Shown piece after piece: positions 11,389 to 34,920 of a stretch of DNA of 64,000 nucleotides (its first letter is position 1; each line of letters opens with the position of its first letter). Made by a program: the position numbers and the translations under genes. Below the pieces are notes generated by a model, which saw only the letters and a program-made list of their open reading frames with translations, ran no database searches and was not told the origin of the DNA. Source of the stretch: an uncultured Acidobacteriota bacterium (GTDB lineage: Bacteria; Acidobacteriota; Vicinamibacteria; Vicinamibacterales; CAVVIG01); NCBI GenBank assembly GCA_963773035.1, contig CAVYZX010000004.1, forward strand, positions 470,642 to 534,641, given 5' to 3'.

Positions 11389-11403
11389 TGTGAATTTGTT
11401 CTC

Positions 11404-11476: not shown

Positions 11477-11507
11477 GATCGATCGACGGGCTCTCGGCCC
11501 CAGTCCT

Positions 11508-16864: not shown

Positions 16865-16922
16865 AAATCGTAGCCTACCATACGCCTACCGGCGCTTGTG
16901 TGAATGCACTACCATCTCGAGC

Positions 16923-18179
16923 GTGCGCACGCGCTGGATATTGATCGCAACATCTCTGGTCTGGTCGATTGGTGTCGATGTCCACGCGCAGCTCGGCACA
17001 CGGGTCCAGGCCTCTGGGTTCTCGGTGCCTTTGGCGTACGTGCAGGATCCGGCGGATCGTAACGTCCAATTGGTGGTCCAGCAGGATGGTCATATCCGGG
17101 CGATTCGCAACGGCACTGTTCTCCCGAACGATTTCCTGGATCTCTCGGCGGCCATCGTCAGCGGAGGCGAACAGGGGCTTCTGGGCCTTGCGTTCGCGCC
17201 CGATGTCGCCACGAGCGGCCGCTTCTTCGTCAACTTCACGGATCGCTCGGGAAACACGGTCGTTGCGAGGTTCAAGCGGTCGTCGGATCCGATCGCCGCG
17301 GATCCCGGGTCGCGTTTCGACCTGCGCTGGGGCGGCGCCGGCGGCCCTGGGTTCATCGCACAGCCGTTTGCGAATCACAACGGAGGCCATCTGGTGTTCG
17401 GGCCCGACCGGTACCTCTACGTCGGGCTCGGTGACGGCGGTTCGGGCAACGATCCGGCGCATCGCGCCCAGAATCCGCGTGAATTACTCGGCAAGATGCT
17501 GCGGATCGATGTCAACGTCGCAGACAGCCATCCGTCCGGCTACGAAGTTCCAGCGGACAATCCGTTCGTTTCGTCGGGACCCGCTGGCACACGCCCCGAG
17601 ATCTGGGCATTCGGTTTGCGGAATCCCTGGCGCTATTCATTCGACGACCCCAACCGCGGTGGGACCGGCGCCCTCGTCATCGGCGATGTCGGCCAGGGCA
17701 GATTCGAGGAAATCGACTACGAACCGCCCCGGCGTAGTGGGCGAAACTATGGCTGGCGCAACCGCGAAGGCGCGCACGACAATCTGGCGTCACCGCCGCC
17801 GGCCTATCTCCCTCTGGTCGATCCGATCCACGAGTACGACCGGAATTCCGGCCAGTCGATTACCGGAGGGTTCGTCTACCGTGGCCGCGCGCTCGGCGCA
17901 GCGTTTCAGGGACGATACTTCTTTGCGGATTTCATTCAGGGCCGGGTGTGGTCGATCACTTTGACCGTGAATCCGTCGGATGGCGAGGCGCGAGCCTCCG
18001 ACTTGATCGAGCACACAAACGAGCTTGGCGGCTTCGATCAACTGGGTAACATCAGCGCGTTCGCAATCGATACCGATGGCGAGCTCTATATCGTCAGCTA
18101 CTCGCTCGGTCGCATCTTGAAGGTCATCAGCCAAGCGGCGCCGCCGCCGGCGCCGACGGGGCTGCACATCATTCGCTGA
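16923..18179 (+). CDS. PQQ-dependent sugar dehydrogenase family protein (secreted)
   Basis: Contains LLGLAFAPDV, HNGGHLVFGPDRYLYVGLGDGGSGNDP, LLGKMLRIDV and GLRNPWRYSFD. GTG 16923 (VRTRWILIATSLVWSIGVDVHAQ) is preferred because the track start at 16794 overlaps the divergent gene. Confidence 0.8.
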   Translation: MRTRWILIATSLVWSIGVDVHAQLGTRVQASGFSVPLAYVQDPADRNVQLVVQQDGHIRAIRNGTVLPNDFLDLSAAIVSGGEQGLLGLAFAPDVATSGRFFVNFTDRSGNTVVARFKRSSDPIAADPGSRFDLRWGGAGGPGFIAQPFANHNGGHLVFGPDRYLYVGLGDGGSGNDPAHRAQNPRELLGKMLRIDVNVADSHPSGYEVPADNPFVSSGPAGTRPEIWAFGLRNPWRYSFDDPNRGGTGALVIGDVGQGRFEEIDYEPPRRSGRNYGWRNREGAHDNLASPPPAYLPLVDPIHEYDRNSGQSITGGFVYRGRALGAAFQGRYFFADFIQGRVWSITLTVNPSDGEARASDLIEHTNELGGFDQLGNISAFAIDTDGELYIVSYSLGRILKVISQAAPPPAPTGLHIIR

Positions 18180-19221
18180 CCCTCGGAAGCAAGACCATGA
18201 CACTTTTCTCCACTTTAACTGGCCGCGGCTCAATTCGGAATATTCGTTCCGCGTTCCGATGAGCGACCTTCTTCAAATCCTCTTCTGGCAGCGGTGCCGT
18301 TCGCATGAATCGAACGGCCTCCATCGTTTCCTGGTACGGGTAGTCGACGGCGAACATGAGGTTGTCGGCGCCGAGCACCGTGTGGCAATACTGCAAAGCC
18401 GGATGGTGATTCATGCCGCTCGTCGTGAAGACGAAGTTGTTCTGAACGTACTCGCTCGGTTTCCGTTTCAGCTTTCCTCGCCACATGTAGTCGATTCGAT
18501 AGAGCCAGTAGGGCAACGCTTCGCCCAGGTGGCCGAGCACGATTTTCAGGTCGGGAAACGCGTCGAAGACACCGTTGACGATCAACCGCATGGCGTGGAT
18601 GCCCGTCTCCACGTGAAAGCCCCAGATGGCGCCGTACAAGTTGTAGCTCCCGTCGAGGATTTGCGACGCGGGGAATGGCGGATTGCGCGGATGAATGTAG
18701 AGCGAAGCGTTGGAAGCGACGGCCGCTTCGAAGATCGGCCAGAACTTCGGATCGTCCAGATATTCGCCGCTCGTATGGGAATTGACGATCAGTCCGTTCA
18801 GCTTCAAGGTGTTGATTGCGCGATCGATCTCTTTCGCCGCCGTCCTGGGATCTTGAGGAGCAAAACTGGCCAGCGCCGCATAGCGATTCGGATGGCTCCT
18901 CACAGCCTCGGCCAGTCGATCGTTGGTGTCCGCGGCCATCGCTGTCGCGGTGTCCGCGTCGAAGAGCTGAACCCCGGGCGAGGTCATCGAGAGCACCTGC
19001 AGATCGATGCCGGCCTCGTCCATGATGCCAATCCGTTCATCGCCCAGGTCGAGAAGGCGACCTAGGACCGTCGAATAGGCCGGGGAAAGGAACCGGCTCC
19101 ACATCACGAGGTCGGCATCGCCGCCAGGGCTCGAGGCCAGCTTGCGTATGGCTTCGACCTGCTCGGGAAACGCGCACGCCTCTTCGGTGGCGATGAGTCG
19201 CAGATTCTTGTCGTGGGTCAC
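18169..19221 (-). CDS. Amidohydrolase_2 family protein (ACMSD/LigW-like decarboxylase or hydrolase)
   Basis: 350 aa with GTG start. LRLIATEEACAFPE, HP, VLGHLGE and FAVDYPY are typical metal-dependent TIM-barrel amidohydrolase_2 landmarks. Confidence 0.7.
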   Translation of the reverse strand: MTHDKNLRLIATEEACAFPEQVEAIRKLASSPGGDADLVMWSRFLSPAYSTVLGRLLDLGDERIGIMDEAGIDLQVLSMTSPGVQLFDADTATAMAADTNDRLAEAVRSHPNRYAALASFAPQDPRTAAKEIDRAINTLKLNGLIVNSHTSGEYLDDPKFWPIFEAAVASNASLYIHPRNPPFPASQILDGSYNLYGAIWGFHVETGIHAMRLIVNGVFDAFPDLKIVLGHLGEALPYWLYRIDYMWRGKLKRKPSEYVQNNFVFTTSGMNHHPALQYCHTVLGADNLMFAVDYPYQETMEAVRFMRTAPLPEEDLKKVAHRNAERIFRIEPRPVKVEKSVMVLLPRVSE

Positions 19222-19236
19222 GAGCGAAGAGACATC

Positions 19237-20397
19237 CTAATTCACGGGCCGCTCGTTGGTGTCGTAGCCTAGACGCAGCATGCCCTGCTTCGCGCCGTTG
19301 ACCGTGCCCTGAGCGAGCCATTCGAGGGATGCCCGGAACAACAGCAGGTGATTCTTCTCCCACATCGCGTTGTGCGACGAGCAACCGAGGTCGACAAATA
19401 CTTTTTCAGGCGAGCCGATATCCGCGTAGAGCTCGTTGACGCGCGCCGGCAGGACCTGTTTGTCGTGCACACCCGCCACCATCAGCGTAGGAGCCTGAGT
19501 TTTGGCGACCATCCCAGCATTCCAGCCCCACGTCGTCGTTTGGGGTGCGCGGCGCACACCAGGACCCCAGGTTGCGCCAACCGGGTCCGATTCGAGCATG
19601 CTCGACCAGACACTATCGAAGACGACTTGATCGTACTGGCCGGGGCACCCCACCTGACGGTTCCAGAGCGCTGTGAGCTCCTGGCGCGACTGCGTGTTCA
19701 TGGCGGAACCGTCGGGGCGTGCTGCAGGTGGATTCTCGGGCGCCGTCCGGTTGTAGGCCGGGGCCAATAGTACGAGCCTCTGCACTTTGTCGGCATGCTG
19801 CGCCGCATAACCACCGGCACGCGGACCCCCAAGCGACCACGCCACCATGTTTACGCGGTCCGCGCGCCGGAGCATTCGAATGTACTCGACGACGGCGTCG
19901 AGGTCGTTCCAATCCGATGCAATCGTGGTCGCCCCCTGCGAGAAAGTTGGCGCGCAAGGCGCGGCGAGCAGCGAAGGAATGAACGCCGCTTGCTGCTCAC
20001 GAGTCAGATTGCAGGGATCGTTCATGACCGTCGGCCGCGTCGATCGGCCGTAGCCGGTCATGTCCATTGAAAACACATCGAAACCTGCGCGCGCGAGATA
20101 GGCCATCCAGCTGTAGTCGCCGGATGGAACGTCGAATGCGACCTCTGCCGGTGTGCCTGCGCCGTGGACGAAGAGCACCACGCCAGATGATCCACGCTGG
20201 ATGTTTCGACTCTCGACCCGTTCTCGAACGTAGATCTGCGCCGTCTGGCCGTTCATCGAGGGCGCGGTGGAGCGCACTCGCACGTAGTGATCGATCGTCA
20301 GGAGCTGATCGCCCGCCGGCAGGTTTGACGATGACGTAGTTGTCGTAGCGGCGCAGCCAATTGACGTCAAGAGCAAACAGGCGACCAGGTATCGCAT
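19237..20397 (-). CDS. Alpha/beta hydrolase lipoprotein
   Basis: True start is ATG 20397 (MRYLVACLLLTSIGCAATT, lipobox). Nucleophile elbow: VAWSLGGPRAG. HGAGTP is also present. Confidence 0.75.
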   Translation of the reverse strand: MRYLVACLLLTSIGCAATTTTSSSNLPAGDQLLTIDHYVRVRSTAPSMNGQTAQIYVRERVESRNIQRGSSGVVLFVHGAGTPAEVAFDVPSGDYSWMAYLARAGFDVFSMDMTGYGRSTRPTVMNDPCNLTREQQAAFIPSLLAAPCAPTFSQGATTIASDWNDLDAVVEYIRMLRRADRVNMVAWSLGGPRAGGYAAQHADKVQRLVLLAPAYNRTAPENPPAARPDGSAMNTQSRQELTALWNRQVGCPGQYDQVVFDSVWSSMLESDPVGATWGPGVRRAPQTTTWGWNAGMVAKTQAPTLMVAGVHDKQVLPARVNELYADIGSPEKVFVDLGCSSHNAMWEKNHLLLFRASLEWLAQGTVNGAKQGMLRLGYDTNERPVN

Positions 20398-20446
20398 GAA
20401 TCGATCTCCAATGATGTGGTCACGATACGCGGTCGGCGTCGGGCCG

Positions 20447-21292
20447 TCAAACGAGCGTGGCGACTGCTTCAACCGCAAGTACCTGCCCGGGTCCCTCGGC
20501 CCACAGCTTGACTGTCCGCTGATCGTCGCGCCGGCCGCAAACGCGAAACGGGTTGGTGTCGAAGAGCGGCGCGACGGCACGAAACGAAAACGCCGAGACG
20601 TTGGCCGCCGGCAAGTTGTTTCGAACTAGATCGGCCAGCATGGTCGCGATCAACGGTCCGTGAACGACCAGACCGGGGTAACCCTGGCCGGTCGTCGTGA
20701 AGTGACGATCGTAGTGGATTCGATGGCCGTTGAACGTCAGCGCGGAATAGCGGAACAACAGGACCTCATCGGGCCGAACCTCACGGGTCCAGCTCGCCGG
20801 CTCCGGAGCGCGACTTGGCTGGGGAACCGACTCTCCTGGCCGCGAATCCTCTCGGTAGACGATGTCCTGGTCCTCAATCAACGCGAGGCCTGTGCCATTG
20901 CTGATGCGGTGGCGCACTTTGACGAAAACCAGCGGACCAGATCGTCCTTCCTTATAGGTCACATCCTCGACGCGTGACAACCTGGACACCGAATCTCCCA
21001 CGCATAGCGAACGATGACTCTCGATCCGACCGCCGGCGTACATCCGACGAGGCAGCGGCACCGGTGGCAGAAATCCTCCCAGGCGGGCGTGTCCGTCTGC
21101 GCCGAGCTCTGATTGGCGATGAATCGGCAAGAAGAACAGCCAGTGCCAGAGAAGCGGCAATGGGTCGCCAGCCTTCGGTCGCGGGTCGTCTCGATCGAGC
21201 GTGGCCGAGAGAGCCGCGACCGGTCCAGGCGACACGACGTCGTCCCGTGACTCGGTCCGCCCAATCCAGCCGCGTAAGCTCTCAATGTTCAC
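20447..21292 (-). CDS. MaoC-like double-hotdog acyl dehydratase/hydratase
   Basis: 281 aa with GTG start. The C-terminal segment SALTFNGHRIHYDRHFTTTGQGYPGLVVHGPLIATMLADL is MaoC-type. Confidence 0.75.
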   Translation of the reverse strand: MNIESLRGWIGRTESRDDVVSPGPVAALSATLDRDDPRPKAGDPLPLLWHWLFFLPIHRQSELGADGHARLGGFLPPVPLPRRMYAGGRIESHRSLCVGDSVSRLSRVEDVTYKEGRSGPLVFVKVRHRISNGTGLALIEDQDIVYREDSRPGESVPQPSRAPEPASWTREVRPDEVLLFRYSALTFNGHRIHYDRHFTTTGQGYPGLVVHGPLIATMLADLVRNNLPAANVSAFSFRAVAPLFDTNPFRVCGRRDDQRTVKLWAEGPGQVLAVEAVATLV

Positions 21293-21356
21293 GAGGTGTT
21301 TGTTCTGCTGCGTCTTTTCTAGGACAATGGATGGGTTGCACGGATGAGAGCTGAAT

Positions 21357-21608
21357 ATGCCTCTATACGATTATTCTTGCCGATCCTGTGGTCATGAATT
21401 CGAAGCCCTCGTTCGTACCGGGAGTGTCCCGACGTGCCCGGCGTGTCAGAGCGGGGATCTCGAGAAGCTGCTCTCGACGTTTACGATGGGCTCGCTCGAT
21501 CACACCAAAGAGCTCGTCAAAGCCGAGCGCAAGAAGCGCCTGCCGAAGCATCGAGCCGAACAGAACGAGGAGTATCAGCACACGCTTCGAGAGCACCTGG
21601 ACCACTAG
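21357..21608 (+). CDS. FmdB-family zinc-ribbon protein
   Basis: MPLYDYSCRSCGHEFEALV...CPACQSGDLEKLLSTF is the canonical FmdB CxxC...CxxC N-terminus. Confidence 0.85.
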   Translation: MPLYDYSCRSCGHEFEALVRTGSVPTCPACQSGDLEKLLSTFTMGSLDHTKELVKAERKKRLPKHRAEQNEEYQHTLREHLDH

Positions 21609-21633
21609 CCCCTCCTGCCCTTCCAGCCTCTAT

Positions 21634-23097
21634 CTATGCGGCCGGGACCGTCGGCTTCGCCTTGATCGTCTTGACCATCTGCGAGTAGGGCTCGATCGTG
21701 CCGTGGACTGGCACGTCCTTGTCGACCTTCAACTTGCGCTGCGCGATGTTCCACAGAACGTTCTCTCCCCACAGGTGCTGCTGCCAGGCCGAATCGTAGA
21801 GATCGGCCTGAACGAGCATGCGATCTCGCGGCACGTAGGCGAAGAGATTCGTCCCCTCTCGAGGATTGTCGATCAGGTGGTAGAGCCGCACCTCCATCGA
21901 CTTGTCCTTCAGCGTCATCTCATCATCCACGAGCACGAGCTTCAGAGGTTGCGGGTTCTTCGCCAGCGCGTCCTGGACGATGGTGTGTTTTCGAGCGACA
22001 AGATCCTTGAAGAAGGCCTCGTTGTCGCGGTACGTGATGATCGTCAGACCTTCGGCCACAGCGACGCGCAGCCCGCCCGAGTGGTCGAAGTGGTGATGCG
22101 ACACGATCGCGTGAGTCAGCGGCTTCTGGCTGAGCGTCCGCGCCTTGTCGATGACCGGTTTCGACCGGGCCTCGTTCAGCGGGACCTCGAAGAGCGTCAG
22201 GTGATCGTCGAACTCGAACACGATGCTCCGATGGTTGCCGGAACCCGCAAGCCACCAGATGCCCTTGGCGACCTGCTCCGCTGTGACATTCACGGGCGGT
22301 GGAGCTGGAGCCGCCGCCGTTTTCACGCCTTCTGGCGCGGCCAGGTCGCCGGCCTCGGCGTCCACGGTGTTCTTCGACACCTGCAGATCGAACTGCAGGT
22401 ACTTGTCCATGTTGGTCGTGAGCCGCTTCGGCAGCTTCAAACCGCCAACGTCTTCGTAACCTGAGAACGTCGTGACGATCGCCACGTCGCCCATGTTCGG
22501 GTTGTAGCTCATCGACCTGACGCTCGAAGGTAACTTGGTGGAGGTGTCGACGCCGAGCGTCAGCACGTCGCCCTTAGCGGTCGTCACGTCGACGAGCTGC
22601 TCGTTACCTTGTTGCCGGACGTTGGTCAGCATCGACGAAGGATCGAGCGCAGCCAGCACGATCGGAATAGGATGATGAAGCACCTCCATCCGTCGTTCGG
22701 CCGCAGCCTGCTCGCCGGCCCTCGTCATGTTCCCATCCGCGCCAACGTTGTAAGCGACGTCGCCATCGAGACCCTGCTGTTGTCGTTGGACGGTGGCGCC
22801 GGCGAACATGAACTGAGCGGTTCGCACTTGTTGCACCCGTGTGCGTCCGTTCGCCAAATCGATGGTGCGCTTGAACTCGGTCACCTTCCATACCGGCAGT
22901 TCGCTGTCCGGCATTTTGTTCTGTCCGGCATTTGGTGCGACGGCTTCCCCTTCAATGACAAGCGTCTTGGCCGCCCGGATTCGATCGGCTCCGCCGAGAG
23001 CCGTCGCAACGTCCTGGATGAACTTCGTCTCGGGCGGCACTTGCGCGCAGGCGGCCACGACAATCGAAGCGGCCACGATTGAGATGTGTTTTTCCAT
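21634..23097 (-). CDS. Exported MBL-fold metallo-hydrolase with an N-terminal accessory domain
   Basis: True start is ATG 23097 (MEKHISIVAASIVVAACAQ). Metal motif: AIVSHHHFDHSGG. The track extension to 23217 is a translation of the heptamer array. Confidence 0.8.
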   Translation of the reverse strand: MEKHISIVAASIVVAACAQVPPETKFIQDVATALGGADRIRAAKTLVIEGEAVAPNAGQNKMPDSELPVWKVTEFKRTIDLANGRTRVQQVRTAQFMFAGATVQRQQQGLDGDVAYNVGADGNMTRAGEQAAAERRMEVLHHPIPIVLAALDPSSMLTNVRQQGNEQLVDVTTAKGDVLTLGVDTSTKLPSSVRSMSYNPNMGDVAIVTTFSGYEDVGGLKLPKRLTTNMDKYLQFDLQVSKNTVDAEAGDLAAPEGVKTAAAPAPPPVNVTAEQVAKGIWWLAGSGNHRSIVFEFDDHLTLFEVPLNEARSKPVIDKARTLSQKPLTHAIVSHHHFDHSGGLRVAVAEGLTIITYRDNEAFFKDLVARKHTIVQDALAKNPQPLKLVLVDDEMTLKDKSMEVRLYHLIDNPREGTNLFAYVPRDRMLVQADLYDSAWQQHLWGENVLWNIAQRKLKVDKDVPVHGTIEPYSQMVKTIKAKPTVPAA

Positions 23098-23111
23098 AGG
23101 CGACAGTATAC

Positions 23112-23227
23112 GGCTGGGGGCTGGGGGCTGGGGGCTGGAGGCTGGAGGCTTGGGACTGAAGGCTCCGAGCTGGAAGCTGGGAGCTGGAAGCTGGGAGCTG
23201 GCATCTGGAAGCCGCAAGTTGGAAGCT
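23112..23227. repeat. Tandem heptamer array of about 16 units (GGCTGGG/GGCTGGA drifting to AGCTGGR) that fills the whole intergenic gap
   Basis: Reads GGCTGGG x3, GGCTGGA x2, GGCTTGG, GACTGAA, GGCTCCG, AGCTGGA, AGCTGGG, AGCTGGA, AGCTGGG, AGCTGGC, ATCTGGA and so on. It runs from 15 nt past the MBL start to the kinase stop. Confidence 0.9.
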
Positions 23228-25968
23228 ACCGGCTCGCCATCCGTTTCTTCACATCTTCGAACCAGTTGATTACCACATTAATTCTTGCCACGGCGGGCGC
23301 TCCGGACTGGGCCTGTTCGGCACTGATGACGGCAATGAGCGTCTTTCCGTCTGGCAGGACATCAATGTTTCTGTTCGTCGTCGGGCCACCCTCTTGGGAG
23401 CCACCCCTAGGAATCGAAACCGGGTTACCGGTCGCGAAGCTCGGCTGCGTGGTGACGCGAACTGCCGCGAAATCGTTCGGTCCGGGCACGTAAAAGAGTT
23501 CTTTCCCGTCACGCGACCAGAAGGGATGATGAGGCGTCGCAGTCCCACGCCTCGCCACCTGATATCGGCTTCCGGTCGGCGGGAATGGCTCCACCAGAAC
23601 ACCCGCCGTTGCCGCGTCCTCGGACTGATACGCAAGCCATCGTCCATCAGGAGAGAAAGCGGACCGGCCGATATTTGTTGAGCCTTGGGCGAAGGCAGTC
23701 GTTTTCTTGTCGTTAACAGACAAGATCCAAATGGCGCCACCGACGGCCCCCCTGATCGCGGTGTAAGAAAGGTGCTGGCCGTCCGGAGACCACGAATCCG
23801 GAACGTGGATGACGCCCTTCTCTTCCGGCTTGGTGAGTCGTTCCGCGCTGCCGCCGTCGACCGGCTGCCAGAAGATGCCGAGATCGCCCTCACGATTCGA
23901 TTGGAACGCCACACGCCTGCCATCGGCCGACCAGATCGGATACGTATTGGATCCTCCGAACGTCAGTCGCTGGGGCGCCGTTTGACGACAACTCGTACAG
24001 ATAGACGTTTGCCTCTCTGCCGTACTCTGCGGCATACGCTACACGGCGACCATCCGGAGACATCCTGGGGAACGCATACCGTCCGGGCGGCAGGCCAAGA
24101 GGCCTTGCGCTGCCTGCTCGATCGATCAGCGCGAGAGCGGTCTGAGGAGACACCGACGCGGATGCCGGACCGGCGACATAGATCAAGGATCCCGTGGCGG
24201 AAAAGCTGAAATAGGCGGACGTTGCCGCGTTCAAATTGCCTAGCAGAAATCGAGCCGGTCGCATGACGCCTTGCACAAGCGAGACAGCGCCGCCGGTAAC
24301 CTCCAGGCTTGCCAGATCGAACCGACGCGCGAACAGCGTGCCGCCCACGGCATATACCAGATGGCCTGTCGGCACGTAGCGGGCGTCGTCGCCCCCCCGA
24401 ACCAGCGTCTTGCGCTCGCCCGACGTCAGCGTCTGCACCACAATCTCGGCCGTGTCCGGATCGACGGCTCTCGATAGCGTGAATAGGACAGCGCGTCCCC
24501 CAGGCAGCATTCTTGGCGTGCCTGCCATCTCTTCGGGCTCGATCTTGACCAGCACCTCCGGCTCTCCGCCATTTGCGGACACACGAACGATGCCAGCTGC
24601 CCTCTGGCCAATCAAAATCGACCCTTCATCCCACGACATGCCAAGTGGAAAGTCGATACCTCCACAGAGCACCACCGAAGCGCCTCCGGTGACGTCAATT
24701 TTTCTAAGCGTTCGATCCTGCTGCGACCAGAAGACGACGGAACGCCCATCCGGTGAAAAAACGGGAAAGCGCGGCGTGCCTCCAGGAGTGCTGACTCCCG
24801 GAATGGGCCTGGCCTCCAGTTCCGAGAGCGAGCGCAGGTAAAGTTGCAGGTTGGATGCGTAGACGATCTGTGAGCCATCCGGAGAAATCGTAACCGGCTG
24901 GCCTATCGTGAACGCAGTTCCTTCGTCATTGAGGAGAGAGAATTGCGTCACCGGTCGCGTGACGTCCGGTCTGAGATTCCAGACGGCCAAGCCTGTGATT
25001 GCGGCCGCCAGGACCGCGACTCCCGCAAGAGGCGCGACTGGTTTCCAGAGCGGCCGCGATGTGTGGAGACGCTCGTCTTCAGCAAGCAGGCCACGCGGAT
25101 CGGCAACGATCGTCTCGATTTCCACGCGCAAGTCGACCGCCGCGTGCCACCGTGCCTTGGGATTTTTGGCGAGGCATCGGCGTACCAACTCCGAAATTCT
25201 TGGATTCAGCTTCGCCGGAAACAGACTGAAGTCCGGCTCGCTTTTCAGAACCGACGCGAGCACGTCGGACACGCTGTCACCATCGAAGGCCTGGCGCCCG
25301 GCGATCATTTCGTACAACACGGCACCGAACGAGAAGATGTCGCTCCGATGATCCGCGTTGAAGCCTTTTGCCTGTTCCGGCGACATGTAAGCCGCCGTGC
25401 CGAGGATCATGCCAACCTGGGTTCCGGCAATGGTCAGCGTTGGTGACTGGGATAGATTCGAGCCGGCCTGACCGGCCCCTACCGGATCCGCAAGCTTCGC
25501 CAGGCCGAAATCCAACACCTTGACCGTGCCATTTGGTCGCAGCTTGATATTCGCCGGCTTGAGATCGCGGTGAGCGACACCTTTCTCGTGCGCCGCTTCG
25601 AGCGCTTCAGCGATCTGCTTCGCAATGTCGAGCGCTTGATCGAGCGGAATGCGTCCCCGTTGGAGCCTTTCGGCCAAGGTTTCCCCTTCGACCAACTCGA
25701 GCACGAGAAACTTCCGGGCGGCCGATTCTTCGAGGCCATAGATCGCTGCGATGTTGGGATGGTTCAATGCCGCGACGACTTGCGCTTCTCGATGAAACCG
25801 GGCGACCCGTTCAGCGTCGTTGGCAAAGAGGTCTGGAAGGACCTTGATGGCGACCTCGCGCTTCAACTTTCCGTCGCGAGCGCGATAGACCTCGCCCATG
25901 CCGCCGGCACCAATCGGCGCGAGGATTTCGTATGTGCCAAGCGGAGTACCCGGAGCGAGCGATGGCAT
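23226..25968 (-). pseudogene. Ser/Thr protein kinase - TM - TolB-like (PD40) beta-propeller, interrupted by one frameshift
   Basis: The kinase N-terminus (YEILAPIGAGGMGEVYRARD...HRDLKPANI...DFGLAK) and repeated SPDG..v.y blades run in ORF 23890-25968. They continue in ORF 23226-24035 (TFGGSNTYPIWSADGRRVAFQS...NWFEDVKKR). The frames join at GGCGCCCCAGCG (plus-strand G-run 23972-23975), where removing one base restores ...SSNGAQRLTFGG. Confidence 0.85.
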
Positions 25969-25988
25969 TTCGCAGGTAATCTAGCGTA

Positions 25989-26046
25989 GCTGGAGGCTGG
26001 AGGCTGGAGGCTAGAGGCTGGAGGCTAGAGGCTTGAGGCTGGAGGC
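25989..26046. repeat. Tandem heptamer array (GCTGGAG/GCTAGAG) of about 8 units; left arm flanking the four-helix-bundle gene
   Basis: Reads GCTGGAG x3, GCTAGAG, GCTGGAG, GCTAGAG, GCTTGAG, GCTGGAG. Confidence 0.9.
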
Positions 26047-26165
26047 AAGAATTGGAACAGTCGCGGAAAAGACCGTTGCCGCCATTTCAACGTCTCTTGA
26101 GTTCTCGATGATTTCTTTGCGCGTCGAAGCGGCACGAGTTCTGCTCCGCTCTGAGCGCCTCACCA

Positions 26166-26528
26166 ATGTTTACTTATCGAGAGCTTGAAGTCTGGAAACT
26201 GTCCATGGATCTGGTCGAGCAATGTTATCGAACGACGACATCCTTTCCCAGGTCCGAAATGTACGGGCTCTCCAGCCAGCTCCGGCGCGCGGCGATTTCA
26301 ATTCCTTTGAACATCGCAGAAGGGTATTGCCGTCGCACCACCAAGTCGTACATTCATCATGTGAGCATTGCCCTTGGCTCGCACGGTGAGCTGGAGACAT
26401 GTATTGAACTTGCCGGCCGTCTTGGATTTCTGTCAGCAGAGCAGAAGCAGGGACTTGCCGACGCGACAGGGACAGTCGGACGATTGCTGAACGGTCTCCA
26501 TCGCGCCCTCCAGAGCAAGCTCAAGTAG
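26166..26528 (+). CDS. Four-helix-bundle protein (23S rRNA intervening-sequence protein family)
   Basis: YRELEVWKLSMDLVEQCYRTTTSFPRSEMYGLSSQLRRAAISIPLNIAEGYCRRTTKSYIHHVSIALGSHGELETCIELA is the classic signature of this family. Confidence 0.9.
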   Translation: MFTYRELEVWKLSMDLVEQCYRTTTSFPRSEMYGLSSQLRRAAISIPLNIAEGYCRRTTKSYIHHVSIALGSHGELETCIELAGRLGFLSAEQKQGLADATGTVGRLLNGLHRALQSKLK

Positions 26529-26592
26529 CCCCCCAGCCTCCAGCCTCCCGCCCCCAGCCCCCAGCCCCCAGCCCCCAGCGCCCCAGCCCCAG
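26529..26592. repeat. Tandem heptamer array (CCCCAGC/CTCCAGC) of about 9 units; right arm, inverted relative to 25989-26046
   Basis: Starts at the base after the TAG stop. Contains CAGCCTCCAGCCTCC, the exact complement of GGAGGCTGGAGGCTG in the left arm. The minus strand has many G4-G6 runs. Confidence 0.9.
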
Positions 26593-26611
26593 AGAGTTAC
26601 AATCGCGCCCA

Positions 26612-29600
26612 ATGACGAAGAAGCCGGCCTTCTGGGTGCTCCTGGCACTCGTGCTTCGTCGCGTCGGCCACCTTCTCGTGGCGGTACTTCACGAGCGCTT
26701 TCCCGCTTTGTCGATCGACATCGGCATGGATCGTCAGGCGGCGCTCGCCAGCGCCCGGATGCTCGCCTCCGATCGACAAATCGGCCCGGCGGACTTTCGG
26801 GATGCCGCCTCGTTCTCGATCGATGAAACGGTTCAGACGTTCGTCGAGCTGGAGGGCGGTGGCAAGCCCGCATTCGCCACACTGGTGAGCGACCGTCTGT
26901 TCGCACCTTACAAGTGGCGCGTCCGGCACTTCAAAGAACTCGAGAAGCATGAAGCGACGTTCACGTTCGCGCCCGATGGAACACCAAACGGATTCGTCGA
27001 GAGACTTCGAGAAGACGCGCCTGGCGCGGCGCTGACGGCAGAAGCGGCGCGCGCCATCGCTGAGGCCGCGGCCGGACGACCGTGGGGCGCGGACCTGACG
27101 GCCTTTCGCTCGGTCGAGCAGTCCCAGGAGCGACGCACCGGAGGACGCGTCGACTACACATTCGTATACGAGCGCCCGGACCGGCAACTCGGCGACGGCC
27201 GGTTCCGCCTTCGACTGGTGGTCAGCGGTGACAAGCTGACCGAGCTCTCCTACTTTCTCAAGATTCCTGACGCCTTCTCCAGACGCTACGAACAGATGCG
27301 ATCAATCAACAATGCGATCGGTGTTGGAGGGTCGCTTGCGTTGCTGGTGTTGTACGGCGTCGGCGGGATCGCCATCGGCCTGTTCTTCCTGGGCCGGCAG
27401 CGATGGATCATCTGGCGGCAACCTGTGTTCTGGGGCGTGGTCGTCGCCATCGTCCAAACCGCCGCGCGTGTGAACGAATGGCCGCTGGCCTGGATGCAGT
27501 ACGACACCGCGCTCTCGACGCGATCGTTCATCGCTCAGCAGGCCGCAGTCGCGATCGCCGAGCTGGCGGTCAACGTCGTGTTGTTCAGCTTTTCATTCAT
27601 GGCGGCGGAGAGCCTCACTCGGCGCGCGTTCCCCAACCATCCCCAGTTCTGGCGGATATGGGGCCGGCAGGCCGGTGCGTCGCGCGCGGTCCTCGGTCGT
27701 ACGGCGACAGGGTACCTGCTCGTATCGATCTTCGTGGCCTACGAAGTCGCGTTGTATTTCGTGGCCACCAATTCGCTGGGCTGGTGGAGTCCGTCCGAGG
27801 CGCTGTTCAATCCCGACGTGCTGGCGTCGTACTCGCCGTGGCTCTCAGCGATTGCGCGGTCCTTTCAAGCGGGGTTCTGGGAAGAGGCGCTCTTCCGTGC
27901 CGTACCGATTGCGGGTGCCGCGCTCATCGGCGACCGCCTCGGAAACCGTCGCCTGTGGATCGTCATCGCGTTCATCGTGCAGGCGATCATTTTCGGCGCC
28001 GGACATGCACCCTATCCGACGCAGCCGGCGTACGCCCGGCCGGTCGAGCTCGTTTTGCCGTCGATCGGCTTCGGGTTGCTCTATCTGACGTTCGGTCTTC
28101 TTCCCGGCATCGTTCTTCACTTCGCGTTCGACGCGTTCTGGTTCGCGATGCCCCTGTTTGCAACGACAGCCGCCGGGATTCGCGTTCAGCAGATCATGGT
28201 CGTCGCCATGATTTTCGTGCCGCTGTGGATCGTGCTGATCCGCCGGATCGTGGCTCCAGGTGTTCCTGAAGACGTGCCGCTGAATGCCTCGTGGCATCCG
28301 GCTCCCATCGATGCCACCTCGACGAAGGAGCCGATTGCGACCGCGACGGGCGGCGTGGCACCGTCGCACGTCCGGTGGGTGATGATTGCAGGGATCGTTG
28401 CCGCGGCAGTGTGGATCGTGGCGGTCGTGCGCATGCCGGCCCAGCGCTACGCGCTCGGCGCTTCTCGAACCGAGGCCATCAGGGCGACGCGGTCAGCGCT
28501 CGAGTCGGCTCGCCTCGGACCGGAGTGGCGATTCCTCCCGCTTACGAGCGAAGCCGGTGGTTCGGCTCACCGGTTCGTCTGGACGACCGCCGGGCGAGAA
28601 ACATACGAGTCGCTCCTGGGCACCTATCTGAATCTCCCTGGCTGGTCGGTGTTCGTACGAAAATTCGAAGGCGACGTCGCCGATCGCGCGGAGAACTGGA
28701 CGACAAGGCTGGGCCCAGACGCCACGGTCTCGAACATCAGCCATGAGCTTCCTGAGGCGCGTGCCGGTGCAGCTCTCGATGAAACAACCGCCCGCGAACT
28801 GGCCAAACGCGCATTGGTCCAGCGGTTTGCCATCGACGCCGCGGTCCTGAAGGATGTATCCGCCGTCCCCTCGAAGCTGCCGCAACGCACCGACTGGGTC
28901 GTGACGTTTTCAGACACCGCTCGTTCGCTCCCGAGAGGCGAATTGCGCCTGTCGACGCGCATTGCCGGCGGTGAAGTCGCCGAGACACGCCGGTTCGTCT
29001 TCATCCCCGAAGAGTGGGAGCGCTCCGATCGCAACGCGCAGACCATTGCGTCGATCATTGGCGCGGGCACGCTACTACTCGGAGTAGTGATGGTCGTTGC
29101 CGGGATGATTCTGTCGATCGTGTCGTGGAGCCGGCGTCAATTCTCGGTACCGCTCTTTCTGACCATGCTGGCAAGCCTCCTGATCTTGAGCGCCGCGCGT
29201 CTGGCCAACAACTTCCCGATCTTGATGGCCCAACTATCGACCGCCCAGCCGTTGCGCTTACAACTTGCCGTGCTTCTCGGTTCGACAACAGTTGGTGTGG
29301 CGTTGCAGGCGGCCGCATTAGCGCTCATCGCGGGAGCGGTGCCCTATTGGTGCTCGACGGGCCGTCTGAGGTTGCCGACGGCCGCGAGGCTCGGCCTGTC
29401 GCTCGGCGCAATCGGTGCGGGTGCGGCAGCCGTCAGCGCGTTGTCGTCGAACGGACCTCTGTGGCCCTCGTACGCCGGCGCCGCAACGTTCGCCCCGTTG
29501 ATCGCGTCTGCAACGACTCCCGTCCTCGGGTTGCTGACCCGGATTACGCTTCTACTGCTGATTGTCGGCGCGGCAAACCGTCTGACTGCGGGCTGGACAC

Positions 29601-29950
29601 GCCGACGCACGCTCACGGCGGTCCTCATCGTGGCCGTGGGCGGCGTCCTGGGCAACAGTGCGTCACCGTTGAATATCGGAATGTGGATCACCGCGGCGAT
29701 CGTTATCGGACTGATTCTGCTCGCCGTGTACGTGTTCGTGTTGCGTCACGACGTCAGCGTCATCCCTCTCGCCGCCGCCGTCGTCGCGACCGTCGGGACC
29801 CTGCCCGAAGGCTTGTCACGGGCCTATCCCGGAGCGCTGCCCGGAGCCCTGATTGCGGTCGCCATCATGTGGCTCGCCGCCTATGCGTGGTTCCGGACGC
29901 TGTCGGGCCCACACCGGACCAACATGCTCGGCGACGTGGTCACCGCATGA
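26612..29950 (+). CDS. Very large polytopic membrane protein containing a CPBP (CAAX/Abi-type) intramembrane glutamic protease domain
   Basis: 1112 aa. CPBP motifs: FWEEALFRAVP (EExxxR), IIFGAGHAPY (FxxxH) and VLHFAFDAFWF (HxxxD/N). An N-terminal TM and soluble domain, a second soluble domain (residues about 620-800) and about 8 further C-terminal TM helices are present. Confidence 0.8.
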   Translation: MTKKPAFWVLLALVLRRVGHLLVAVLHERFPALSIDIGMDRQAALASARMLASDRQIGPADFRDAASFSIDETVQTFVELEGGGKPAFATLVSDRLFAPYKWRVRHFKELEKHEATFTFAPDGTPNGFVERLREDAPGAALTAEAARAIAEAAAGRPWGADLTAFRSVEQSQERRTGGRVDYTFVYERPDRQLGDGRFRLRLVVSGDKLTELSYFLKIPDAFSRRYEQMRSINNAIGVGGSLALLVLYGVGGIAIGLFFLGRQRWIIWRQPVFWGVVVAIVQTAARVNEWPLAWMQYDTALSTRSFIAQQAAVAIAELAVNVVLFSFSFMAAESLTRRAFPNHPQFWRIWGRQAGASRAVLGRTATGYLLVSIFVAYEVALYFVATNSLGWWSPSEALFNPDVLASYSPWLSAIARSFQAGFWEEALFRAVPIAGAALIGDRLGNRRLWIVIAFIVQAIIFGAGHAPYPTQPAYARPVELVLPSIGFGLLYLTFGLLPGIVLHFAFDAFWFAMPLFATTAAGIRVQQIMVVAMIFVPLWIVLIRRIVAPGVPEDVPLNASWHPAPIDATSTKEPIATATGGVAPSHVRWVMIAGIVAAAVWIVAVVRMPAQRYALGASRTEAIRATRSALESARLGPEWRFLPLTSEAGGSAHRFVWTTAGRETYESLLGTYLNLPGWSVFVRKFEGDVADRAENWTTRLGPDATVSNISHELPEARAGAALDETTARELAKRALVQRFAIDAAVLKDVSAVPSKLPQRTDWVVTFSDTARSLPRGELRLSTRIAGGEVAETRRFVFIPEEWERSDRNAQTIASIIGAGTLLLGVVMVVAGMILSIVSWSRRQFSVPLFLTMLASLLILSAARLANNFPILMAQLSTAQPLRLQLAVLLGSTTVGVALQAAALALIAGAVPYWCSTGRLRLPTAARLGLSLGAIGAGAAAVSALSSNGPLWPSYAGAATFAPLIASATTPVLGLLTRITLLLLIVGAANRLTAGWTRRRTLTAVLIVAVGGVLGNSASPLNIGMWITAAIVIGLILLAVYVFVLRHDVSVIPLAAAVVATVGTLPEGLSRAYPGALPGALIAVAIMWLAAYAWFRTLSGPHRTNMLGDVVTA

Positions 29951-30390
29951 CGAGCTCCACGGGCAGACGGGTTCTTCTTATGGCTGCCGCAGTTGCCATC
30001 ATTGCCGTCGCAGTCGTCACATTGTTTTTGTCTTCGACATCACCCGCCCGCAACGGGCCGGTCGAGTTCACGCGCGTCGGGCAAAACGGCCCTGTATTCA
30101 CCGTGTCCGTGTCACCTGCGAAAGCCTCGGATGATGAGTACCTGATGCGAATTGCGGAACAGCTATCGGCCGAGCAGACTCAGTCGGGTGGCTCGGGACA
30201 GGTGAGCGTCATGGTTTGGCCAAACGACGTCCCCGTCCCGAAGGAACCGCCGACGACGGAGTTCGACGCGTCGATGCGCACGCAGATCGCCGGGATCTTC
30301 GTGAACCCCACACGCAACATCAAGCACATGATTCGCTTCAAAGAGGGCGCAACCGTCCTGGAGAAAGAATTTGGAGCGAAGACGCGTTGA
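29947..30390 (+). CDS. Membrane-anchored hypothetical protein, translationally coupled to the CPBP gene
   Basis: The ATG overlaps the upstream stop as ATGA. MTSSTGRRVLLMAAAVAIIAVAVVTLFL is a signal anchor, followed by a 110-aa soluble domain. I recognise no family. Confidence 0.65.
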   Translation: MTSSTGRRVLLMAAAVAIIAVAVVTLFLSSTSPARNGPVEFTRVGQNGPVFTVSVSPAKASDDEYLMRIAEQLSAEQTQSGGSGQVSVMVWPNDVPVPKEPPTTEFDASMRTQIAGIFVNPTRNIKHMIRFKEGATVLEKEFGAKTR

Positions 30391-30423
30391 CACCCGAAAT
30401 CTACGATCTAGGATCTACCTGAC

Positions 30424-31233
30424 GTGCTTCGCTGCCGCCACAGACTCACCGACGCCCTCCTGGTTGGCGGATTGTGCCTCGCTGCGACTGCCTTCGCACA
30501 GCGGGGCCGTTTCGGGTTCCGGCTGCCACCCAATCCCGCATACGACGGCGCCTTTCAGTTTTGCCGGGCGATCTATCAAAGAAATCCGTACCCGGACGGA
30601 GGTAATTGGACGACGGACTATCCGCAAGCCGATGTGAATTTTCCGTATCGGCTCGCCGAGCTCACGCTGACGCCGGTCAGCAAGGACACCAAGCGCAACC
30701 CCAATCACGCCATCGTCGGCTTGACCGATCCCGAGCTCTATCGGTGCCCGATGATCATGATGTATGAGGTCGGCGCGATCTATTTCGACGAAACGGATGC
30801 AGCCGGACTCAGGGACTATCTGCTCAAAGGTGGCTTCCTCTGGGTAGACGATTTCTGGGGCGAGTACGCGTGGCGGGTCTGGGAAACCGAAATCCGCAAG
30901 GTTCTCCCGGCGGGCGAATATCCGATGATGGACATCCCTCTGGCGCATCCAATCTTTCACGTGCTGTACGAAGTGAACGAGGTTCCTCAAATTCCGTCCA
31001 TCGGCTTCTGGTTCGGAACTGGCGGCCGGACTTCTGAGCGCGCCGACAGCCAGGTTCCGCACATCCGAGGGATCTTCGATCGGCGTGGAAGGTTGATGGT
31101 TCTCGTCTCGCACAACACCGACTTCGGTGATGCGTTCGAGCGCGAAGGCGAGAATCGGGCGTACTTCGAACGCTTCGCCGGCGTGGGCTACGCGTTCGGC
31201 ATCAACGCCGCGCTGTATGCGATGACGCACTAG
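30424..31233 (+). CDS. DUF4159-family secreted protein (paralog 1)
   Basis: Contains YDGAFQFCR, DYPQADVNFPYRL, LYRCPMIMMYEVG, LRDYLLKGGFLWVDDFWG, LAHPIFH, HNTDFGDAFE and GINAALYAMTH. This matches the DUF4159 pattern as I remember it. Confidence 0.7.
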   Translation: MLRCRHRLTDALLVGGLCLAATAFAQRGRFGFRLPPNPAYDGAFQFCRAIYQRNPYPDGGNWTTDYPQADVNFPYRLAELTLTPVSKDTKRNPNHAIVGLTDPELYRCPMIMMYEVGAIYFDETDAAGLRDYLLKGGFLWVDDFWGEYAWRVWETEIRKVLPAGEYPMMDIPLAHPIFHVLYEVNEVPQIPSIGFWFGTGGRTSERADSQVPHIRGIFDRRGRLMVLVSHNTDFGDAFEREGENRAYFERFAGVGYAFGINAALYAMTH

Positions 31234-31353
31234 AGCAGCTATCAGCTGTCTGCTATCAGCTGTCTGCCATCAGCTGTCAGTTCTCAGGGACCAACCCTTA
31301 CGCAGTTTTGACGTGAACCGAGCTGACTGCTGACAGCTGAAAGCTGACAGCTG
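31234..31353. repeat. Inverted pair of CAGCTG-based heptamer arrays around a unique loop of about 32 nt
   Basis: Left arm (31234-31287): ATCAGCTGTCTGCT ATCAGCTGTCTGCC ATCAGCTGTCAGTT. Right arm (31320-31353): GAGCTGACTGCTGACAGCTGAAAGCTGACAGCTG. The arms are mutually complementary in several registers. Confidence 0.85.
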
Positions 31354-31393
31354 TTCTTGAAGTAGACTGGCGCTGACACGCTAGGAGATCGTG

Positions 31394-32206
31394 ATGCTGC
31401 GCCCTGGACGCGGAACGACGCTCGTCTTGCTCGTGGCGGGACTCTGCGTCGCAGCCACCGCGGCGGCACAACGCGGCCGGTTCGGCTTCCGCCTGCCGCC
31501 CAATCCCCCTTACGACGGTGGATTCATGTTCTGCCGGATCATGTTCCGGCAGGCATCGAACGGCGATGGAGGCGGCTGGGCCGTCGACTATCCACGCGCC
31601 GACATGAACCTGCCGTATCGACTCTCGGAGCTTACTTTGACGCCCGTCAGTCGCGACGAGAAGGGCAACTACAATCACGCGGTATTACGTTTGACGGATC
31701 CGGAGCTCTATCACTGCCCCTTCATCATGATGACGGAGGTCGGGGCTCTCTACATGGACGAGGAGGAGGCGGCCCACTTGAAAGACTACCTCCTCAAGGG
31801 CGGCTTCCTGTGGGCGGATGATTTCTGGGGCGAGTTCGCATGGCGGATCTGGGAGAACGCAATTCGCCAGGCGCTGCCCGCCGGTGAGTACCCGATCGTC
31901 GATCTCCCGCTCGCACATCCGCTCTTTCACACGTTGTATCAAGTGAACAGCGTGCCGCAGATTCCATCGATCAATGCGTGGTTCGAGCTGGGCGGCGGCA
32001 CGTCCGAGCGCGGCGTAGACAGCGCCGTGCCCCATGCCCGGGCCATCCTCGACGCCCGAGGCAACATCATGGTGCTGATCACGCACAACACCGACTTCGG
32101 CGACGCCTTCGAGCGGGAAGGCGACAATCGTGCCTACTTCGACAGGTTCGCCGGCGTCGGCTACGCGTTCGGCATCAACGCGTTGCTGTATGCCATGACC
32201 CACTGA
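31394..32206 (+). CDS. DUF4159-family secreted protein (paralog 2, tandem duplicate)
   Basis: Collinear with 30424-31233 over its full length and clearly majority-identical by eye. AGGAG lies 6 nt upstream of ATG 31394. Confidence 0.7.
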   Translation: MLRPGRGTTLVLLVAGLCVAATAAAQRGRFGFRLPPNPPYDGGFMFCRIMFRQASNGDGGGWAVDYPRADMNLPYRLSELTLTPVSRDEKGNYNHAVLRLTDPELYHCPFIMMTEVGALYMDEEEAAHLKDYLLKGGFLWADDFWGEFAWRIWENAIRQALPAGEYPIVDLPLAHPLFHTLYQVNSVPQIPSINAWFELGGGTSERGVDSAVPHARAILDARGNIMVLITHNTDFGDAFEREGDNRAYFDRFAGVGYAFGINALLYAMTH

Positions 32207-34852: not shown

Positions 34853-34920
34853 CCCTGCCCCTCCTGCCCTTCCTGCCCTTCCTGCCCTTCCCGCCCCTCC
34901 TGCCCCTCCTGCCCTTCCTG
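34853..34920. repeat. Tandem nonamer array (TCCTGCCCY) of about 7 units between two same-strand genes
   Basis: Reads CCCTGCCCC TCCTGCCCT x3, TCCCGCCCC, TCCTGCCCC, TCCTGCCCT, TCCTG. A single related motif, CCCCTCCTGCCCTTCCAGCCTC, occurs at about 21605-21630. Confidence 0.85.

Follow-up and report, generated by a model that had tools for sequence, protein, structure and literature searches.

Open reading frames (ORFs) of the S23p/PF05635 protein family occur in the intervening sequences (IVSs) of the 23S rRNA of Leptospira, Coxiella and Brucella (Ralph and McClelland, 1993, as cited in PMC4990558). In Coxiella, the IVS holds a decaying ORF of this family, with a poor Shine-Dalgarno sequence, inside a 28-bp terminal stem that is cut by RNase III in mid-stem; a homopentameric ring has also been described for this four-helix-bundle family (PMC4990558). 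A gene of the same family is analysed here in a 64,000-nucleotide stretch of contig CAVYZX010000004.1 from an uncultured Acidobacteriota bacterium (hereafter the window), where it lies at 26166-26528 on the + strand between two inverted arrays of tandem heptamers, a G-rich 5' arm and a C-rich 3' arm. The unit of gene and arms is called the cassette below. The reading that we favour, with somewhat more confidence than doubt, is that it represents a widespread accessory element of IVS type, in which a PF05635/TIGR02436 gene is held within long complementary arms that would act as a stem at the RNA level.

Tandem heptamer repeats of cyanobacteria, the STRR sequences, were reportedly described by Mazel and colleagues in 1990. 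G-rich heptamer simple sequence repeats (SSRs) are known from Xanthomonas (GGGAATC) and Nostoc (GGGGAYT), and the 186 arrays and 70-75 convergent inverted pairs per genome in Xanthomonas are of unexplained function (Rehm et al., 2015; PMC4692102). In the supplementary table of that study, repeat #15 overlaps the start of XCC0516 (PMC4692102). The repeat thus abuts the gene of the crystallised, closest solved homologue of the window protein. For the tandem hepta- and octanucleotide sites that occur in pairs in Geobacter metallireducens, binding of the global regulators IHF/HU has been proposed (Aklujkar et al., 2009; PMC2700814). The four-helix-bundle family did not turn up in text searches of either paper (PMC4692102, PMC2700814), and no link between PF05635 and heptamer arrays was found among open-access papers, an older description being possible. 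The sequence-only reading that first drew attention to this locus knew of no description of the arrangement. That was too broad for the heptamer arrays and their convergent pairs, which are known from Xanthomonas, Nostoc and Geobacter; in this non-rRNA, IVS-type layout with SSR arms, only the link of the arrays to the gene family appears to be new.

Paired arrays around the window gene

Paired heptamer-array arms around the window gene are confirmed. The sequence-only reading had counted about eight units on the left and nine on the right, and Tandem Repeats Finder (TRF) gave 8.3 and 8.6 copies. The 5' arm (25989-26046, + strand) has period 7, 90% matches, the unit GCTGGAG with the variants GCTAGAG and GCTTGAG, and a composition of 52% G and 16% C. 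The 3' arm (26529-26592, + strand; CCCCAGC and CTCCAGC) was called by TRF at 26530-26590 with period 7, 89% matches and the unit CCCCCAG, and its 64 nt are 69% C and 16% G. The right array does start, as had been noticed, at the base after the stop codon: the TAG occupies 26526-26528 and C-rich repeats follow from the very next base. An exact complementary stretch of 15 nt was likewise recovered, as 15-mers at 25992 and 26534, within an inverted repeat of 57 nt at 75% that has a core of 22 nt at 91%. When 25980-26600 was folded as RNA, the minimum free energy structure paired the arms end to end (z = -8.0), and the arm-arm duplex, at -92.3 kcal/mol, was far better than duplexes with a shuffled right arm (-48.8 +/- 5.0; z = -8.7). 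The complementary borders and predicted stable stem around an ORF that are characteristic of an IVS are therefore found at the window. By itself, the C-rich arm is unstructured (-5.6 kcal/mol for 26526-26600). As untranslated RNA that is rich in C, poor in G and longer than the 60 nt asked of a Rho utilization (rut) site, it has the composition of such a site.

The 120-residue product was assigned by the sequence-only reading to the four-helix-bundle family first seen in 23S IVSs, and profile matches agree with this. PF05635 (23S_rRNA_IVP) matched over profile positions 1-106 of 106 with 117.5 bits (cut-off 33.8; E 3.8e-34), and TIGR02436, named 'four helix bundle protein', matched with 113.3 bits (cut-off 24). 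The closest solved structure is 2GSC (XCC0516 of Xanthomonas campestris; 5 chains), with E 2.4e-26 over residues 5-116. Identity with Avd, the accessory protein of diversity-generating retroelements, was considered and rejected, the scores being below both cut-offs (NF033474, 21.7 bits vs 80; PF22296 or bAvd, 23.4 vs 40, E 8.9e-5). Neither flanking gene matches a reverse-transcriptase family, template and variable repeats not having been searched for, and the window protein has no match among PADLOC defence systems. The same protein is encoded on two more metagenome contigs, L001 and L002 (comparison loci are cited by such numbers), with synonymous differences only. Set against the insertion sites, pairwise protein identities (55-72%) form a star-like pattern, in which vertical descent and transfer are not separable.

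In the clade of the window locus, 115-215 nt separate the 5' arm from the ATG. Alignment of 20 such leaders, that of the window spanning 26047-26129 (+ strand), left only four invariant columns, a GG and a GC exactly 10 nt apart, in the context yGGCAC-G-N4-yTGCT. The sigma-54 -24/-12 consensus, said to go back to Barrios and colleagues in 1999, is TGGCACG-N4-TTGCW. The corresponding sigma-54-type element of the window is CGGCACGAGTTCTGCT at 26130-26145 (+ strand), with the GG at 26131-26132 and the GC at 26143-26144; across the clade, the GC of the -12 element lies about 12-21 nt upstream of the ATG. Scores of at least 10 of 12 were reached in 8 of 71 gene upstream regions vs 0.26% of random windows, and about 20 of the closest loci have a sigma-54-type match between -25 and -41 relative to the start of the gene. 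Transcription in the window is predicted to start about 10 nt upstream of the ATG, so that an mRNA from this promoter would be nearly leaderless, which fits the lack of an evident Shine-Dalgarno sequence. No sigma-70-like promoter and no intrinsic terminator were predicted in 25800-26800, and no protein with a GAFTGA motif or RpoN box (enhancer-binding protein or RpoN) is encoded in the window.

Upstream of the sigma-54-type element, roughly between -120 and -75 relative to the start of the gene, related leaders (L003, L010, L011, L014, L021, L038, L054) contain a TTGCAGAAAcTGCCA-like motif once or, with a distance of about 35 nt, twice. The window copies are degenerate (GGCAAGAATTGGAAC), starting at 26042 inside the last array unit (26042-26058). 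The sequence GAANNTGC is present in 7 of 21 leaders vs 3.8% of background windows. That the motif is an enhancer-binding site would be a guess. A distal TGGCAG-N-TGCAA-like motif on the minus strand was discarded as a sigma-54 site, its spacing being 2 nt too short.

The cassette is flanked on the left by a Ser/Thr protein kinase gene with PD40 repeats (23890-25968, - strand), whose start codon is 20 nt from the 5' arm, and on the right by a gene for a CPBP (Rce1-like) membrane protease (26612-29950, + strand), both identified by ORF calls and Pfam. The 83 nt from the four-helix-bundle stop to the CPBP gene consist of array for nearly their whole length. A search of 22500-32000 against Rfam at E up to 1 gave nothing relevant, with one chance miRNA match, and the whole window gave no family, rRNA included, at gathering thresholds.

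Recurrence and accessory nature of the cassette

An alignment of homologues was searched against one genome per species, which yielded 66 loci, mostly from Acidobacteriota/Vicinamibacterales. For each homologue, 350 nt on each side were compared, and 318 places picked at random from these loci set the threshold at their 99th percentile. Complementary flanks above this threshold were found at 48 of the 69 homologous genes, from many species, that could be tested; only 22 of 400 cross-locus controls, in which the upstream flank of one locus was combined with the downstream flank of another, reached the same level. The duplex energy per nucleotide was likewise better for a gene's own arms than for cross-locus arms (Mann-Whitney p = 1e-22). 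Of 41 genes labelled as Acidobacteriota, 24 have period-7 arrays both upstream and downstream and 36 have an array in at least one of these positions, the array background being 84 arrays in 982 kb of the same loci beyond +/-400 nt of the genes. Non-Acidobacteriota genes had arrays on both sides in 2 of 31 cases and significant inverted flanks in 18 of 31. Other four-helix-bundle genes do carry inverted arrays, and the stem-gene-stem layout outside rRNA, first proposed from the window alone, is typical of the family. Eight low-GC loci, from metagenome-assembled genomes (MAGs) of the candidate phyla radiation and others, were searched for rRNA context and showed tRNAs only.

The units vary from locus to locus (GGCTGGA, GGGACTA, GGTCAGA, GGCTCGT, GGCTGGT, GGGATTC, GGGATCC, GGCCAGG and others), and they are 7 nt, sometimes 8 nt, long in Acidobacteriota, Cyanobacteria and some other groups. 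Despite this variation, the unit of one arm is matched in the other arm of the same locus, which, judged from the sequences compared, is covariation at the level of the whole array. The polarity of the arms is equally regular. A G-rich 5' arm and a C-rich 3' arm were seen in 43 of the 48 loci with significant arms and the reverse in one, with medians of 50% G for the 5' arm and 51% C for the 3' arm. As a G...C arrangement reverse-complements to G...C, this polarity is a property of the element and not of the orientation of the gene. Copies of a compact form, with arms 0-50 nt from the start and stop codons, occur in Bryobacterales, Planctomycetota, Cyanobacteria and other groups; these sit in operons, on the operon strand.

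Twelve four-helix-bundle copies from cultured strains, all on finished plasmids, were also inspected, and arms were present at 10 of them. In Nostoc edaphicum pNe_5 (TAGGGAG / CTCCCTA), the copy lies between nrdB and nrdA. Those of Calothrix brevissima (GGGTGTA / TACACCC) and Nostoc punctiforme PCC 73102 pNPUN01 (GGGTGTG / TACACCC) adjoin an integrase gene, and that of Nostoc sp. C052 (GGGAACA / TGTTCCC) follows a gene with a TraM-recognition domain. The unit pair GGGAAAA / TTTTCCC occurs in Geminocystis sp. NIES-3709, between AAA ATPase and ParB-family genes, and in Nostoc sp. ATCC 53789, with hypothetical genes on both sides. Copies between cas6 and cas4 were found in Anabaena sp. 90 pANA02 (L158 789-1157; AGGTGAC / GTCACCT) and in Pseudanabaena galeata pPg_01 (L159 801-1160), the latter with mixed direct and inverted units (AAAAGCT and AGCTTTT / AAAAGCC). 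Gemmatirosa kalamazoonensis has octamers in an unannotated record, and Azospirillum lipoferum 4B has an imperfect inverted repeat with unannotated neighbours.

The cassette is accessory, as judged by its presence and absence at one site, its two orientations, its decay and its copies inside operons. Presence and absence were followed at the junction of yqgE/algH with a peptidase gene, since the kinase/CPBP junction lacked suitable orthologues. In a conserved queG-yqgE-[cassette]-peptidase block, the cassette is found at the 3' end of yqgE in 10 species. The four-helix-bundle gene is co-directional with yqgE in L010 and L012, which are not mutual closest relatives by YqgE identity, and convergent in the other eight (L003, L004, L005, L007, L017, L031, L054, L067). 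A metagenome scan with YqgE found cassette-free junctions at equal divergence, with bare spacers of 45-90 nt in L073, L082, L101 and L102; the relatives compared here are 80-86% identical in YqgE. The YqgE of L077, a locus with no cassette, has identities of 84%, 80% and 83% with its counterparts in L003, L007 and L054, respectively, which are loaded; L003 and L007 share 85% with each other. At this junction, the cassette thus has the sporadic occurrence among close relatives that is typical of an IVS, and the gene is not simply fixed by vertical descent. The suggestion that the cassette is insertable is borne out by this polymorphism, by the two orientations and by the copies in dcw, nrdAB and cas operons.

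The kinase/CPBP junction itself, at which the sequence-only reading had proposed to compare relatives, gave a partial answer. A CPBP orthologue of 74% identity has a spacer of 96 nt to the upstream minus-strand gene, which, on gene calls only, leaves no room for the cassette; at a 70% orthologue, the contig begins 85 nt upstream of the gene. No cassette was found at orthologues of 54-57% identity, but these have different neighbours.

Frameshifted or truncated copies with their arms kept occur in L024, L054, L062, L063, L067 and L068. In L030, Pfam matches and conserved gene order give the dcw-type order murE-murF-mraY-[4HB]-murD-ftsW-[4HB]-murG-murC, in which 4HB stands for a four-helix-bundle gene; its compact cassettes, each with short G-rich and C-rich arms, lie at 6979-7644 (mraY/murD) and 9940-10405 (ftsW/murG). 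Other operon-internal copies are those in nrdB/nrdA and cas6/cas4. Two four-helix-bundle copies, about 3 kb apart, were observed in each of L026 and L027.

Changes between strains were also seen at the window locus. The sister strain L002 has the same kinase/four-helix-bundle/CPBP context, but its 5' arm counts five units where the window has eight, and its 3' arm is shorter by about three. The related strain L001 follows window positions 16297-23227 colinearly and resumes at 25989, so that 2.76 kb (23228-25988) with PD40 and kinase genes are missing. Its junction (7060-7215) lies inside two direct G-rich arrays, namely the 5' arm and a solo array at 23109-23227 (+ strand; GGCTGGG.. / GAGCTGGAA) that is in direct orientation relative to it, and the flanks are 86-97% identical. 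This difference could be a real repeat-mediated deletion or insertion, or it could be an assembly collapse.

Two further hairpins in the window had been taken for 'empty' versions of the cassette. One (31234-31353; GCTATCAGCTGTCT x2.9 / AGCTGAC x4.7, with a loop of about 42 nt) lies between two co-directional genes, directly after a stop codon. The other (53117-53223; TCAGCTG / CTGAGAG, with a loop of about 35 nt) abuts the stop of the minus-strand ORF 53224-53796. Both exist and fold, on both strands, with z of about -4.5 to -5, but their unit is AGCTGWC and their G/C skew, by hand count, is near-neutral or slightly opposite. They belong to the same broad class as the other empty hairpins, and the differing unit argues against their being the same arms without the gene. 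A GCTG core is common to all window arrays, which suggests a genome-level 'dialect'. In the comparison loci, short-loop empty hairpins were G...C in seven cases and C...G in one. In the listed G...C array pairs that lack a four-helix-bundle gene, the loop measures 12-74 nt in seven cases; in the eighth, L024, the arrays stand 509 nt apart and have a pseudogene of the family between them.

Gene-free hairpins were also observed in the yqgE-peptidase spacer of several Vicinamibacteria-like contigs, as CACGAAGA/TCTTCGTG octamers in L077 (897-1000), L074 (3056-3190), L113 (1371-1515) and L076 (663-808) and as GATTTGT/ACAAATC heptamers in L099 (999-1080); they are unrelated in sequence to the loaded arms at that junction. 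An empty hairpin of CACGATG/CATCGTG type lies upstream of a CPBP orthologue of 56% identity (L150 3784-4000). Elsewhere in the window, a solo (AGGGCTT)x3.9 array at 11352-11387 stands right after a gene end with no complementary array partner seen, and two separate perfect hairpins, ggcttccgcc...ggcggaag and cttccggct..agccggaag, occupy 11400-11480. TRF repeats at 34854-34920, 45048-45151, 15046-15141 and 37234-37288 have periods of 9, 18 and 18/36 nt; as multiples of three, these suggest coding repeats. The units GCTGGAGG (window) and GCTGGTGG (L021 9757-9850, L014 3292-3373) match Chi-like octamers of Haemophilus and E. coli. A general explanation by Chi sites was rejected, since the units differ completely among loci, and a coincidence is probable.

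Metagenome contigs that carry the four-helix-bundle gene are mostly 0.5-5 kb long and often end in an array (3' end of L001, 5' end of L008). Many predicted homologues have Pro/Ser-rich C-terminal extensions, which probably result from read-in to the C-rich array. It seems that short-read assemblies break at the arrays and that gene calls are distorted by them; the arrays would explain the frequent contig breaks and may explain spurious associations of the gene with CRISPR-Cas and other operons.

A putative stem mechanism and its alternatives

The reading of the cassette as an IVS-type element draws on the ORF-bearing 23S IVS of Coxiella, which is its nearest experimentally studied relative. 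A transcript started outside and crossing the cassette would fold the two arms into a duplex of about 55 bp, a candidate substrate of RNase III, by which the cassette would be looped out and cut from the host transcript. Insertion into a 5' untranslated region or an operon (dcw, nrdAB, cas and others) need then not destroy the host transcript, and the position of the window cassette between the CPBP gene and its promoter would also be explained. Rho loads on C-rich, G-poor, unstructured RNA. With the G-rich arm made first, the C-rich arm of a read-through transcript would pair at once and never be left single-stranded, which would avoid Rho-dependent polarity; the opposite order would expose the C-rich tract for hundreds of nucleotides. 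An mRNA started internally, without the 5' arm, would end in a naked C-rich tail and could offer Rho entry or attenuation before the CPBP gene. The number of units per arm may change by slippage, and what keeps the arms complementary may be selection for pairing, template switching from one arm to the other, or a combination of the two. At the DNA level, the arrays could also serve as substrates of recombination, leading to inversion and deletion.

Several points weigh against this proposal. Stem formation, RNase III cleavage and the effect on Rho are all steps that we infer. The promoter predicted in the clade of the window lies 3' of the left arm, so that the gene's own transcript would be without this arm and could not form the stem. 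Transcription of the CPBP gene must cross the C-rich arm, which fits poorly with a role as a strong terminator. Mismatches between the arms have no strand bias (85 of G.U type vs 66 of A.C type on the gene strand; p = 0.14); neither RNA strand is singled out, and complementarity at the DNA level is an equally good explanation of these data. The lengths of the two arms show only a weak correlation (rho = 0.31, p = 0.13). Most of the comparison loci were found through the gene itself and come from MAGs. Further, repeat hairpins without any gene are common, so that the arms may belong to the host.

This last point leads to an alternative that we regard as possible, if doubtful, in which the hairpin comes first. 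The arms would then be an autonomous intergenic element of the host (a terminator, insulator or mRNA stabiliser placed directly behind stop codons), and the gene a separate selfish insert that lands in its loop or persists nowhere else, much as rRNA helices carry IVS elements at their tips. The same genomes often have empty G...C hairpins, with loops of 12-75 nt, and in L029 and L040 these reuse the unit of the loaded arms. The yqgE-peptidase junction independently holds unrelated empty hairpins in the five loci described above, arms begin at the base after the stop codons of flanking genes, and the GCTG core shared by the window arrays would be such a host's dialect. The 186 arrays and 70 convergent pairs of Xanthomonas (PMC4692102) and the dozens of pairs in Geobacter (PMC2700814) are presumed to be far in excess of the four-helix-bundle genes, which were not counted there. 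However, inverted flanks also surround the gene where heptamer arrays are lacking, at 18 of 31 non-Acidobacteriota genes and in rRNA IVSs, and this indicates that pairing flanks accompany the gene family. Between such arms, no cargo gene of another kind was found. As the loaded and empty hairpins of the yqgE junction are non-homologous, no empty precursor of a loaded site is seen.

A further reading, which we consider unlikely, is that protein and arms form a self-propagating element of a kind not recognised before. The protein, as an Avd-like pentamer, would recognise nucleic acid in the form of hairpins or repeats and would guide insertion into hairpin tips, or persistence there, with rRNA helix tips and terminator loops as examples. 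The thousands of unexplained heptamer hairpins and arrays of bacterial genomes (among them STRR, the GGGAATC pairs of Xanthomonas and the paired sites of Geobacter) would be its footprints or landing pads. The relationship would be like that of REPINs to the RAYT gene, with a different chemistry.

It is decidedly unlikely that the cassette is a mobile or invertible element at the DNA level, with the arrays as terminal inverted repeats or recombination sites, an enzyme supplied in trans and RNA pairing as an incidental property. Such an element would account for the presence and absence of the cassette and its two orientations at the yqgE junction, for pseudogenised copies, for wobble-type mismatches without strand bias and for the 2.76-kb difference with its breakpoints in two direct arrays, and some of the plasmid copies adjoin integrase genes. 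The arms, however, differ among copies even within one genome (L004 vs L024, L010 vs L068), so that no single end-recognising enzyme fits, and a transposase or recombinase is never a conserved neighbour. A target-site duplication is not evident in the window, where the array edges are fuzzy and no systematic test was made. In addition, orientation differs between species and not within a population, and the G-first/C-last polarity has no obvious rationale in DNA.

We give still less credence to the arrays being regulatory DNA for the neighbouring genes, either G-quadruplex repeats or sites for nucleoid proteins and global regulators, with complementarity as a by-product. Precedents exist in the GGGNATC-type arrays that form G-quadruplexes in vitro and follow position rules relative to ORFs (PMC4692102) and in the proposed IHF/HU sites of Geobacter (PMC2700814), and the 5' arm of the window is only 20 nt from the kinase start codon. 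The window unit has GG runs only and would be a poor G-quadruplex former, and units as unlike as GGCTGGA, GGTCAGA, GGGATTC, AGGTGAC and GGGAACA fit no single binding protein; the association with a gene family and the locus-specific matching of arms would also be left unexplained.

A chance juxtaposition or a repeat assembly artefact has practically no likelihood left: short-read contigs do often break in arrays (L001, L008) and the L001 deletion junction is possibly an assembly collapse, but the arrangement was found in three independent assemblies of the window locus, across dozens of species and on plasmids of cultured strains whose sequences are finished, with z-scores of about -8, by which this explanation is refuted for the architecture and only the L001 difference is still exposed to it.

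Comparison with described systems

With the ORF-bearing 23S IVS, the cassette shares the protein family, an ORF within complementary ends that form a long stem, a poor or absent Shine-Dalgarno sequence, decay of the ORF and a sporadic distribution suggestive of horizontal transfer. It was nonetheless rejected as a 23S IVS proper, since these are inserted at rRNA helix tips (23S helix 9, 25 or 45) and the window has no rRNA, the flanks being the kinase and CPBP protease genes. Copies of the cassette lie between protein-coding genes or in mRNA operons. The arms are tandem heptamer arrays of 40-110 nt, whereas the IVS has a unique stem of about 28 bp. A fixed polarity of G-rich 5' and C-rich 3' arms and, in the clade of the window, a predicted sigma-54-type promoter inside the arms also set the cassette apart. 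The 23S IVS is cut out of the precursor RNA by RNase III without religation, whereas excision of the cassette is a proposal.

Systems of REP/REPIN elements and RAYT genes have in common with the cassette that many palindromic intergenic elements are empty while a few copies have inverted repeats flanking a gene. An assignment to this class was discarded, because the cargo is a helical bundle of 120 residues (PF05635) and not a Y1 transposase, and because the arms are locus-specific and differ within one genome. REP palindromes are conserved genome-wide with GTAG/CGTC heads, whereas the arms of the cassette are locus-specific tandem repeats. As regards the features of miniature inverted-repeat transposable elements and insertion sequences, terminal arms are not conserved among copies, and no target-site duplication is evident at the fuzzy array edges of the window. 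The Avd protein of diversity-generating retroelements shows a distant homology to the window protein, below cut-offs. A figure legend associates '23S rRNA IVP' with CRISPR adaptation modules (PMC10910872). As far as that legend goes, cassettes lodged between cas6 and cas4 may be the source of the association.

The paired sites of Geobacter are similar to the cassette in having short tandem-repeat blocks paired on opposite strands between genes, and one of their units, MTYCTGA, is close to the unit of the empty hairpins in an acidobacterial locus (L014). They differ in their short spacing, and no enclosed gene has been reported. With the SSRs of Rehm and colleagues, the cassette shares non-coding tandem heptamers with one G-rich strand, which often abut stop or start codons and vary in copy number, and the window has the convergent inverted pair of such heptamers that is typical of these SSRs. 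Their G-quadruplex definition, at least four tracts of at least three G per array, does not apply to the window, since GCTGGAG has only GG; units with GGG or GGGG occur at other loci. Rehm and colleagues treat the repeats as G-quadruplex elements, whereas the cassette is defined by the complementarity of two arms around one gene, with a unit that varies by locus.

The comparison brings three puzzles, which stood apart for decades, into one architecture, namely the ORF-bearing rRNA IVS, the orphan genes annotated as 'four helix bundle / S23 ribosomal protein', and the heptamer repeats with their inverted pairs. This architecture has rules that are open to testing, that is, arms that are locus-specific and yet matched, a G-first/C-last polarity and an insertion that is tolerated in essential operons, and it is accessible to work on cultured strains that are genetically tractable, among them Nostoc punctiforme, Anabaena and, at XCC0516, Xanthomonas campestris.

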